This document shows, one piece after another, positions 17,950 to 18,249 of a stretch of 64,000 nucleotides of DNA. The first letter of the stretch is position 1. The number at the start of each line of letters is the position of its first letter. The stretch covers positions 5,678-69,677 of the forward strand of contig CAMYJZ010000002.1 of NCBI GenBank assembly GCA_947258845.1, written 5' to 3'. The position numbers and the translations under genes are program-made. Under the pieces are notes generated by a model. That model made no database searches, was not told where the DNA came from, and saw only the letters and a program-made list of their open reading frames with translations. The stretch comes from an uncultured Ectothiorhodospiraceae bacterium (GTDB taxonomy: Bacteria > Pseudomonadota > Gammaproteobacteria > UBA9214).

Positions 17950-18249
17950 ATGAAGACACTCAACCTGTACCTGCTTTCCGGCTTGGTAATGATGACGCCG
18001 GTCACTGCCCAGGCCTATTGCTGCTGGAACGAGGCCATCTGCAAGGCCGTATGTGGTTTTCGTTGCTGCGGCGCGAATGACTTTGTTTCGACTTCCGGGA
18101 CAGAAGCCCTGGCCGGCATCAACACAAGTGATCTGGAACGCGAAGTCGAGGCCGCACAGGATTGTAATCCGAAAATTCGCAATGCCATGTCACGGCAGCT
18201 GAGAACCGCACCCGGCAAACCGCCGGCAATGCGTTACCAGCAGCGCTAG
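17950..18249 (+). CDS. Small secreted cysteine-rich protein (signal peptide plus a 77-aa mature product with a CC-x5-C-x3-C-x3-CC motif)
   Basis: Strong SD (GGAGGAG) 5 nt upstream of the ATG. Sec signal MKTLNLYLLSGLVMMTPVTAQA|Y. Mature N-terminus YCCWNEAICKAVCGFRCCG. Lower-GC island context. No family recognised. Confidence 0.5.
   Translation: MKTLNLYLLSGLVMMTPVTAQAYCCWNEAICKAVCGFRCCGANDFVSTSGTEALAGINTSDLEREVEAAQDCNPKIRNAMSRQLRTAPGKPPAMRYQQR

Follow-up and report, generated by a model that had tools for sequence, protein, structure and literature searches.

The stretch of DNA analysed here, referred to as the window (64,000 nucleotides from an uncultured Ectothiorhodospiraceae bacterium), carries at positions 17950..18249 of its + strand a short gene whose product is a member of a rare, undescribed family of cysteine-knot mini-proteins that are predicted to be exported. 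We start from four observations: the gene is under purifying selection in its own frame, it belongs to a family of homologues, the family members share a module with invariant positions, and no neighbouring gene is conserved beside them. Taking everything together, we slightly favour a reading in which the mini-protein would be an exported disulfide knot that serves as a binding protein and is encoded by a stand-alone accessory gene.

The open reading frame begins with ATG and specifies, stop codon included, a pre-protein of 99 residues that starts with MKTLNLYLLSGLVMMTPVTAQAYCCWNEAICKAVCGFRCCGAN and reads in full MKTLNLYLLSGLVMMTPVTAQA|YCCWNEAICKAVCGFRCCGANDFVSTSGTEALAGINTSDLEREVEAAQDCNPKIRNAMSRQLRTAPGKPPAMRYQQR, the bar marking the predicted cleavage site. 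Directly readable upstream is the Shine–Dalgarno sequence GGAGGAG (17939..17945, +), which lies 4 nt 5' of the ATG and bears out the strong ribosome-binding site reported in an earlier note on this DNA; GGAGG-type sites likewise precede the start codons of the homologues in L001 and L002, the two closest metagenomic loci. GC content at third codon positions (GC3 0.65) exceeds that at first and second positions. Moreover, a codon comparison among four close homologues gave pS values of 0.58–0.90 for the core (residues 23–50) as opposed to pN values of 0.08–0.23: Synonymous change is saturated while nonsynonymous change is low, and the core is therefore under strong purifying selection in the frame 17950..18249. 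Among the findings that the earlier note had named as speaking against a gene are a complete lack of homologues and a better-supported overlapping gene on the opposite strand. Sequence and profile searches did find homologues, and neither strand has an overlapping ORF with comparable selection support. The rival view is that of a chance ORF or decaying remnant without function, lying in a junk junction beside mobile-element debris: Integrase and IS91 remnants are indeed found within about 500 bp, the corresponding RND locus of the nearest relatives lacks the ORF, and a promoter scan called none on the ORF strand. However, the ORF is intact and preceded by a strong Shine–Dalgarno sequence, its homologues at 49–57% identity combine saturated synonymous change with an invariant core, and the family extends to 70 clusters. 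The selection analysis thus effectively refutes this view, to which we give hardly any credence, and the ORF is almost certainly a real gene for an exported protein, as the earlier note had argued.

Rfam matched the tRNA described below and nothing else over 16500–18600, and a search for upstream regulatory motifs among the four close loci found the Shine–Dalgarno sequence to be the sole conserved element. An upstream stretch common to L001 (10–60) and L002 (35–110), consisting of TTG.TA, 17 nt, TA(T/C)GC. and then GGATACAGG or GAATACAGG, respectively, could by its sequence be the promoter of these two homologues; it is not recognisable 5' of the gene in the window. Downstream, a GC-rich hairpin without U-tract (18320..18351) is predicted by RNA folding between the mini-gene and the adjacent RND gene, whose stop codons face each other (18247–18360: MFE −34.5 kcal/mol, z = −2.0). 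It was not called by a consensus terminator scan; judging from the folding, it is a possible bidirectional terminator.

Inspection of the N-terminus reveals the layout of a Sec-type signal peptide (residues 1–22; 17950..18015, +): Lysine K2 is followed by a hydrophobic segment (residues 3–16) and by an AxA site, A20-Q21-A22|Y23, after which cleavage is predicted. These are the features of Sec-dependent pre-proteins processed by type I signal peptidase and agree with the canonical Sec signal of the earlier note; neither a lipobox nor a twin-arginine motif was seen on inspection. Within the family, the signal peptides differ in sequence while practically every member retains the pattern, and the cysteine module begins 0–3 residues past the AxA site. 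A signal-like N-terminus of this kind points to export of the mini-protein.

The cysteine module itself, delimited by family alignments, a tabulation of 125 module copies and AF2 modelling, spans residues 23–41 (18016..18072, +). Its 19 residues, YCCWNEAICKAVCGFRCCG, hold six cysteines with the spacing CC-5-C-3-C-3-CC, and, as previously reported, a seventh cysteine follows further on, here located at residue 72; the symmetrical spacing that had been ascribed to the pattern must be corrected, since only the order of the cysteine groups is palindromic and the spacing 5,3,3 is not. Family alignments define a conserved unit of 18 residues, Y-x-C-[WFMS]-N-[PEK]-A-I-C-x-A-[VI]-C-G-x-x-x-C, which can be summarised as Y-x-C-W-N-P-A-I-C-x-A-V-C-G-x-x-x-C with the cysteine spacing C-x5-C-x3-C-x4-C. 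In window numbering, C25, A29, I30, C31, C35 and C40 are invariant in the family, the four cysteines among them across all 125 tabulated copies, and N27, A33 and G36 are nearly so. The two additional cysteines, C24 and C39, follow a different pattern: Both are present in 36 copies and neither in 79, while C39 occurs alone in 10 copies and C24 alone in none. Copies that lack both mostly have Thr/Thr at these positions, with K/E also found at position 24 and V/I at position 39. The module is followed by a predicted helical tail (residues 51–86; 18100..18207, +), which is defined by AF2 helices and contains a second conserved motif, INTSDLERE (residues 57–65; 18118–18144, +), as well as the unpaired seventh cysteine C72 (18163–18165, +), conserved in the four closest homologues. 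The motif is an instance of the pattern [IF][SP]xx[DE]LxxE, which occurs about 30 residues past the module in 42 of 93 members, compared with 0.85 expected from shuffled tails.

The protein had been described as an orphan, a label that no longer applies. A word-indexed search of 5.8 billion proteins returned, besides the protein itself, two metagenomic homologues with 57% and 49% identity, in which AQAYCCWNEAICKAVCG.RCC and all seven cysteines are identical and the signal peptides differ. A genome scan added the fourth close homologue, encoded at 7660–7977 of L003, a locus from an uncultured Gammaproteobacteria MAG. Copies of a 35-nt repeat flank this homologue (7406–7461, 8051–8085 and 8185–8219), one of which forms a perfect 48-nt palindrome (GGTCAGAGAGCAATTGTTTCTAAT/ATTAGAAACAATTGCTCTCTGACC); from their sequence they look like a REP-like or MITE-like element, or like terminators. 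An exhaustive phmmer search of 1.84 billion cluster representatives (50% clustering) yielded 22 representatives at E ≤ 0.001, all of 82–183 aa and none outside this range, and a profile search yielded 70 clusters of 49–146 aa. The family thus comprises proteins of 49–183 aa and occurs in Alpha- and Gammaproteobacteria; complete Mesorhizobium genomes encode members labelled 'hypothetical protein', and at one other locus a neighbouring gene matches Thermohalobaculum, an alphaproteobacterium. Four forms can be distinguished. Form A, to which the protein of the window belongs, has six cysteines (YCC...CC) in one module followed by the helical tail, and it also occurs in tandem within one protein. 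Form B has five cysteines, C39 being present without C24 (10 of 125 copies), and form C comprises short proteins (49–118 aa) with four cysteines. In form D, which includes Mesorhizobium proteins, two four-cysteine modules are placed after the signal peptide and at the extreme C-terminus. When a profile of the module alone was used to search for fusions to larger proteins, 32 candidates came down to 4 small proteins.

In agreement with the earlier note, no known family can be assigned. Pfam, NCBIfam, PADLOC and PHROGs returned nothing at or near threshold for the window protein and up to 56 members. Lowering the Pfam cut-off to E ≤ 1 for 56 members brought up sub-threshold matches to Keratin_B2_2, Gamma-thionin, Myticin and Toxin_3, which are driven by cysteines; the best of the Gamma-thionin matches had E = 0.0025 among the 56 members scanned, below the Pfam cut-off. 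A profile search of PDB sequences returned solely TFIIIA zinc fingers (E = 1.2), and no similar structure came up in fold searches with the mini-protein. The literature was searched for the motif strings without turning up a relevant paper, and a plasmid tblastn together with a scan of viral contigs found no relatives.

We modelled the protein with AF2 both at full length (56-sequence alignment; mean pLDDT 72, about 81–84 over residues 21–40) and as the isolated 34-aa core (mean pLDDT 73, 78–87 within the core). Both runs agree on a bridge at residues 23–24, a helix at residues 28–34 and a bridge at residues 39–40, and the full-length model places helices in the tail at residues 51–54, 59–71 and 74–86. 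These confidence values are moderate. Asn27 and Pro/Glu28 at the start of the helix and Gly36 after it suit N- and C-capping. We consider it probable that the module is a disulfide-stabilised fold: A disulfide knot is favoured because C24 never occurs without C39, because the pair is replaced mostly by Thr, and because AF2 predicts the bridge-helix-bridge arrangement. Replacement of C24/C39 mostly by Thr/Thr in four-cysteine forms is what one expects of cross-strand neighbours. If residues 24 and 39 are indeed cross-strand neighbours, C25 and C40 would face the opposite side, toward the C31/C35 face of the helix, and this suggests two core disulfides that connect {C25, C40} to {C31, C35}, joined in the six-cysteine form by an accessory disulfide C24–C39. 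The co-occurrence of C24 and C39 may, however, stem from one or a few evolutionary events. Judged by their number, the odd cysteine counts of form B (five) and of the window's protein (seven) should leave a free thiol, which could make an intermolecular disulfide or suit metal or redox chemistry.

Upstream of the gene, the region 16865–17450 has the debris of mobile DNA. A tRNA-Met gene (16865–16941; ARAGORN, Rfam) is followed by the C-terminal remnant of a tyrosine recombinase (16985–17236, −; Pfam Phage_integrase, E = 1.2e-6) and by the remnant of an IS91-family transposase (17278–17442, +), recognised by tblastn matches to annotated IS91 transposases. This arrangement suggests a decayed island or a rearrangement junction; no second, directly repeated copy of the 3' end of tRNA-Met, such as would delimit an island, was found in the window. 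The GC content is lower over roughly 17500–28500, at about 0.55 instead of about 0.62. On the other side, the mini-gene converges with the gene of an RND permease (18357–21884, −), which is followed by that of its membrane-fusion partner MFP (22009–23301, −), both identified with Pfam and NCBIfam. The permease scores higher with the multidrug-type model than with CusA/CzcA (447.9 vs 222.4 bits), and its nearest named relatives come from Gammaproteobacteria MAGs. Four metagenomic contigs encode RND proteins at least 90% identical to that of the window; the mini-gene is absent from all four, and beyond the RND stop codon their DNA no longer resembles that of the window. The mini-gene therefore occupies a variable junction and does not belong to the efflux unit. 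A role as accessory of the RND/MFP pair can accordingly be ruled out: The orientation is convergent, the adjacency is unique to the window, and RND loci at the stated identity lack the gene.

The same picture emerged from the surroundings of the homologues, which we compared all-against-all within 6 kb for 18 independent locus groups. No neighbour family occurs in more than 2 of the 18 groups, and the common pairs are syntenic relatives. Neither an RND/MFP pair outside the window nor a RiPP maturase or immunity candidate recurs, so that the link to RND/MFP pairs that the earlier note suggested checking is not supported, and no metal-homeostasis gene is recurrent near any homologue examined. 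The contexts of the individual homologues consist of housekeeping or unrelated genes, and the mini-gene is monocistronic at every locus examined.

Several features of these regions deserve a record in their own right. The Pfam ACR_tran match of the RND permease ends at residue 1062, and a C-terminal extension of about 110 residues follows (residues ~1065–1175; 18357–18690, −), for which Pfam gives no match even at E ≤ 1 and which by eye resembles a ferredoxin-like or HMA-like domain without CxxC. The extension is kept in the relatives of at least 90% identity, except that the last ~15 residues, at the synteny break, differ (...LHADLIDFPGHHGSDKS vs ...LHAGLITG). Further along, 23817–27878 (+) encodes a protein of 1353 aa with C-terminal GGDEF and EAL domains; its N-terminal about 900 residues match coiled-coil/SMC-like models only, and its DNA shows a strong purine skew (AT skew reaching 0.49, GC skew about 0.2). 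ARAGORN also called a candidate tRNA-Met at 33872–33945 (+), with the anticodon at position 30, inside the long ORFs 33691–34773 (+) and 33772–35046 (−). In Mesorhizobium sp. 113-3-3 (AP023243.1; L011, 3659–6297), a two-module homologue lies just 3' of one or two AraC-family regulator genes on the same strand, as is also the case in L013 and L028/L029; these regulators are candidate regulators of the Mesorhizobium homologue. Other genes for small secreted proteins (DUF680, BA14K) are located near the Mesorhizobium homologue.

With the gene and its family in place, we asked which function fits the conserved module. One candidate function is the binding or buffering of Cu(I), Zn, Cd or Hg by thiolates in the periplasm, metallothionein-like or copper-buffering, for which the cysteines would stay reduced and chelate the metal. 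Their density, with four of them invariant, is compatible with such a role, as are the vicinal CC pairs of the window's subfamily, a motif known from proteins that handle Hg(II) or Cu(I), and the odd cysteine counts (5, 7) in some subfamilies; the RND/MFP pair adjoining the gene seemed to point the same way. The neighbouring permease is, however, nearer to multidrug models than to CusA/CzcA, the adjacency is found in the window and nowhere else, and no metal-homeostasis gene recurs beside the homologues. Moreover, a signal of the Sec rather than the Tat type leads to an oxidising destination, the mostly-Thr (also K/E and V/I) replacements at positions 24 and 39 suggest a structural cross-strand pair, CxxC knuckles as well as His and Met are missing, and the conserved Ala/Ile/Val helix indicates a packed fold. 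With nothing specific in its favour, we regard metal binding as unlikely. Modification of the cysteines by an enzyme whose gene lies at another place in the genome, as in a bufferin-like RiPP precursor with a Sec leader, would account for a Sec signal that is followed by a strongly conserved cysteine-containing core, and MNIO/bufferin systems provide a precedent for RiPPs that are Sec-exported and modified at cysteines. The RiPP-like precursor put forward in the earlier note nevertheless finds no support in the gene context: In the neighbourhoods described above, no maturase-like or other family recurs beyond 2 of the 18 locus groups, individual contexts are housekeeping or unrelated, and both the conserved helical tail and the two-module forms are atypical for a leader–core peptide. 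On gene context, no conserved maturase or partner gene lying within 6 kb across the 18 locus groups, we rule out a RiPP precursor of the usual arrangement, and modification by a distantly encoded enzyme is very improbable.

A secreted disulfide-rich toxin or antimicrobial, like a defensin, a conotoxin or a heat-stable enterotoxin, aimed at competitors or at eukaryotic grazers, shares more with the mini-protein. The latter is small, predicted to be exported and built around a putative cystine-stabilised helix module. Its cysteine order CC-C-C-CC is that of conotoxin framework III, and 'CC.NPA.C' is reminiscent of α-conotoxin GI and STa, resemblances that we treat as leads only. In addition, the sub-threshold Pfam similarities include Gamma-thionin, Myticin and scorpion Toxin_3 (best E = 0.0025 in 56 proteins), and bacterial cis-defensins exist (PMC11561630). 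These points are set against the near invariance of the inter-cysteine residues across Alpha- and Gammaproteobacteria, which is unlike arms-race toxins, and against a mature protein that is weakly basic (net charge about +1.7, pI 8.3). No immunity or export gene recurs nearby, the CxxxC...CxC motif and the β-hairpin that define CS-αβ defensins are missing, no Enterotoxin_ST or conotoxin Pfam model matches at E ≤ 1, no fold match was obtained, and the plasmid, viral, PHROG and PADLOC collections contain no match. A Sec-dependent bacteriocin was rejected because no small gene, as a candidate for immunity, recurs next to the gene and because of the low net charge. Of the disulfide-knotted toxin or bacteriocin considered in the earlier note, the disulfide knot thus stands, favoured by the C24/C39 pattern and AF2, while the toxin part, which lacks a conserved adjacent immunity candidate, appears rather unlikely.

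We tentatively prefer, although with less than even confidence, a binding module for a conserved partner to a metal site, a toxin or a RiPP. The preference follows from the retention of N27, A29, I30, A33, V/I34 and G36 across two bacterial classes, which speaks against an arms-race toxin and points instead to a packed fold and to a conserved partner. For this binding protein, the following sequence of events can be envisaged: The pre-protein would leave the cytoplasm via Sec, with signal peptidase I cutting behind Ala22. Once in the periplasm, an oxidising compartment, the mature protein would fold its first 18 residues into a tiny bridge-helix-bridge knot, in which the helix N27-P/E28-A-I-C31-x-A-V-C35-G36 would bear C31 and C35 on one face, from which disulfides would run to C25 and C40, located on the short strands at either side. 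A third disulfide, C24–C39, would staple the strands together on the outer face in the six-cysteine subfamily. Y23, W26, I30 and V34 would present a conserved, largely hydrophobic surface, the putative binding head for the conserved partner, and the charged helical tail with its own motif would serve as a spacer or as an element of self-association. The unpaired C72 may link a dimer by a disulfide and thereby mimic the two-module proteins of the family. The gene itself is an accessory gene that stands alone in the variable junction and is monocistronic. We infer the export, the disulfide connectivity, the binding role and the dimerisation, the binding role being read off the conservation pattern alone.

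A more far-reaching version, which we consider improbable, holds that the 18-residue module is a minimal cystine-stabilised bridge-helix-bridge fold of Proteobacteria that had escaped recognition, and that it acts as a ligand or toxin head recognised by a conserved receptor. Equally doubtful is the presentation of this head as a single copy, as a tandem with one copy at each chain terminus or as a dimer joined through C72, and it is just as speculative to see in it a bacterial counterpart of animal disulfide-rich peptides, convergent on the 'CC-NPA-C' of α-conotoxins and STa. If this version were true, the module would offer a new compact scaffold for peptide engineering; under our preferred reading, too, a module of 18 residues held by two or three disulfides might be of interest to peptide engineers. 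Should our preferred reading of an exported binding knot be correct, it would add a new family of bacterial disulfide-rich mini-proteins that lies outside Pfam and NCBIfam models, known structures and the literature. This family is rare, with 22 representatives among 1.8 billion protein clusters, and its core is kept almost residue for residue from Alpha- to Gammaproteobacteria. This constancy implies that its partner or its chemistry, in the envelope or the extracellular space, is conserved as well. Cultivable Mesorhizobium carries members, which makes the function genetically accessible. All the same, it is no breakthrough but one more conserved family of unknown function, and the link to efflux and metal handling that had made the finding seem special does not hold; we rate the family as moderately interesting, not extraordinary.

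Among known systems, bufferin precursors share their operons with the genes for an MNIO enzyme and for a partner protein. The mini-proteins share with them the Sec signal followed by a conserved cysteine-bearing core, the occurrence in Proteobacteria and the presumed periplasmic destination, but the mini-gene has no conserved neighbour at all and no Pfam match to bufferin precursor families. DUF680 and BA14K proteins of Rhizobiales are of similar size, likewise have a Sec signal and share a neighbourhood with the family in Mesorhizobium; they differ in having no sequence relationship to it, and none of the 56 members matched these Pfam families. A likeness in cysteine order is found in conotoxins: Framework III of the M-superfamily is CC-C-C-CC, and α-conotoxins and heat-stable enterotoxin share the motif 'CC-N-P-A-C'. 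The six-cysteine form has the identical order of cysteine groups, and Asn-Pro-Ala begins the predicted helix right after the CC pair. In contrast to conotoxins, however, the loops of the module are 5,3,3, most family members have four cysteines and no CC pair, and the module directly follows the signal peptide, with a long tail and no pro-region. The M-superfamily order is found in only 36 of 125 copies, the precursor layout differs from the signal-pro-mature arrangement with a conserved signal sequence that is typical of this superfamily, and there is no Pfam match to conotoxins. As for heat-stable enterotoxin ST (PF02048), the arrangement CC-5-C-3-C-3-CC directly after the signal contrasts with the CC-x2-CC-x3-C-x2-C that ST carries in a C-terminal mature peptide behind signal and pro regions, and none of the 56 members matched this model at E ≤ 1. 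The resemblance to conotoxins and STa is, in our judgement, an analogy of framework and not homology.

Cystine-stabilised α/β peptides come nearer. Two-disulfide CS-αβ peptides from centipedes and bacteria were reportedly described by Dash et al. in 2019. Like the mini-protein, as far as its export is predicted, CS-αβ peptides are small and Sec-exported, they have a short C-x3-C helix that in the module is presumably tied to strands and followed by Gly, and some bacterial members have two disulfides only. Differences concern the remainder of the architecture: The partner cysteines of the module lie on two flanking segments, C25 before and C40 after the helix, instead of on a C-x-C strand; a C-terminal β-hairpin and a GXC γ-core are missing; and the 18 residues of the module occupy the N-terminus of the mature protein, with a helical tail behind them. 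Cis-defensins, which include five classes of bacterial defensins (I–V), are defined by CxxxC...CxC, a GXC γ-core and a β-hairpin (PMC11561630). Set against this definition, the module contains C31-x3-C35, which is followed by C39C40 or, in most members, by a single C40; AF2 predicts two bridges of two residues around one helix where cis-defensins have their γ-core and three disulfides, and the minimal form has four cysteines. Despite these differences, cystine-stabilised α/β peptides, bacterial defensins included, are the nearest concept to the module among the systems compared.
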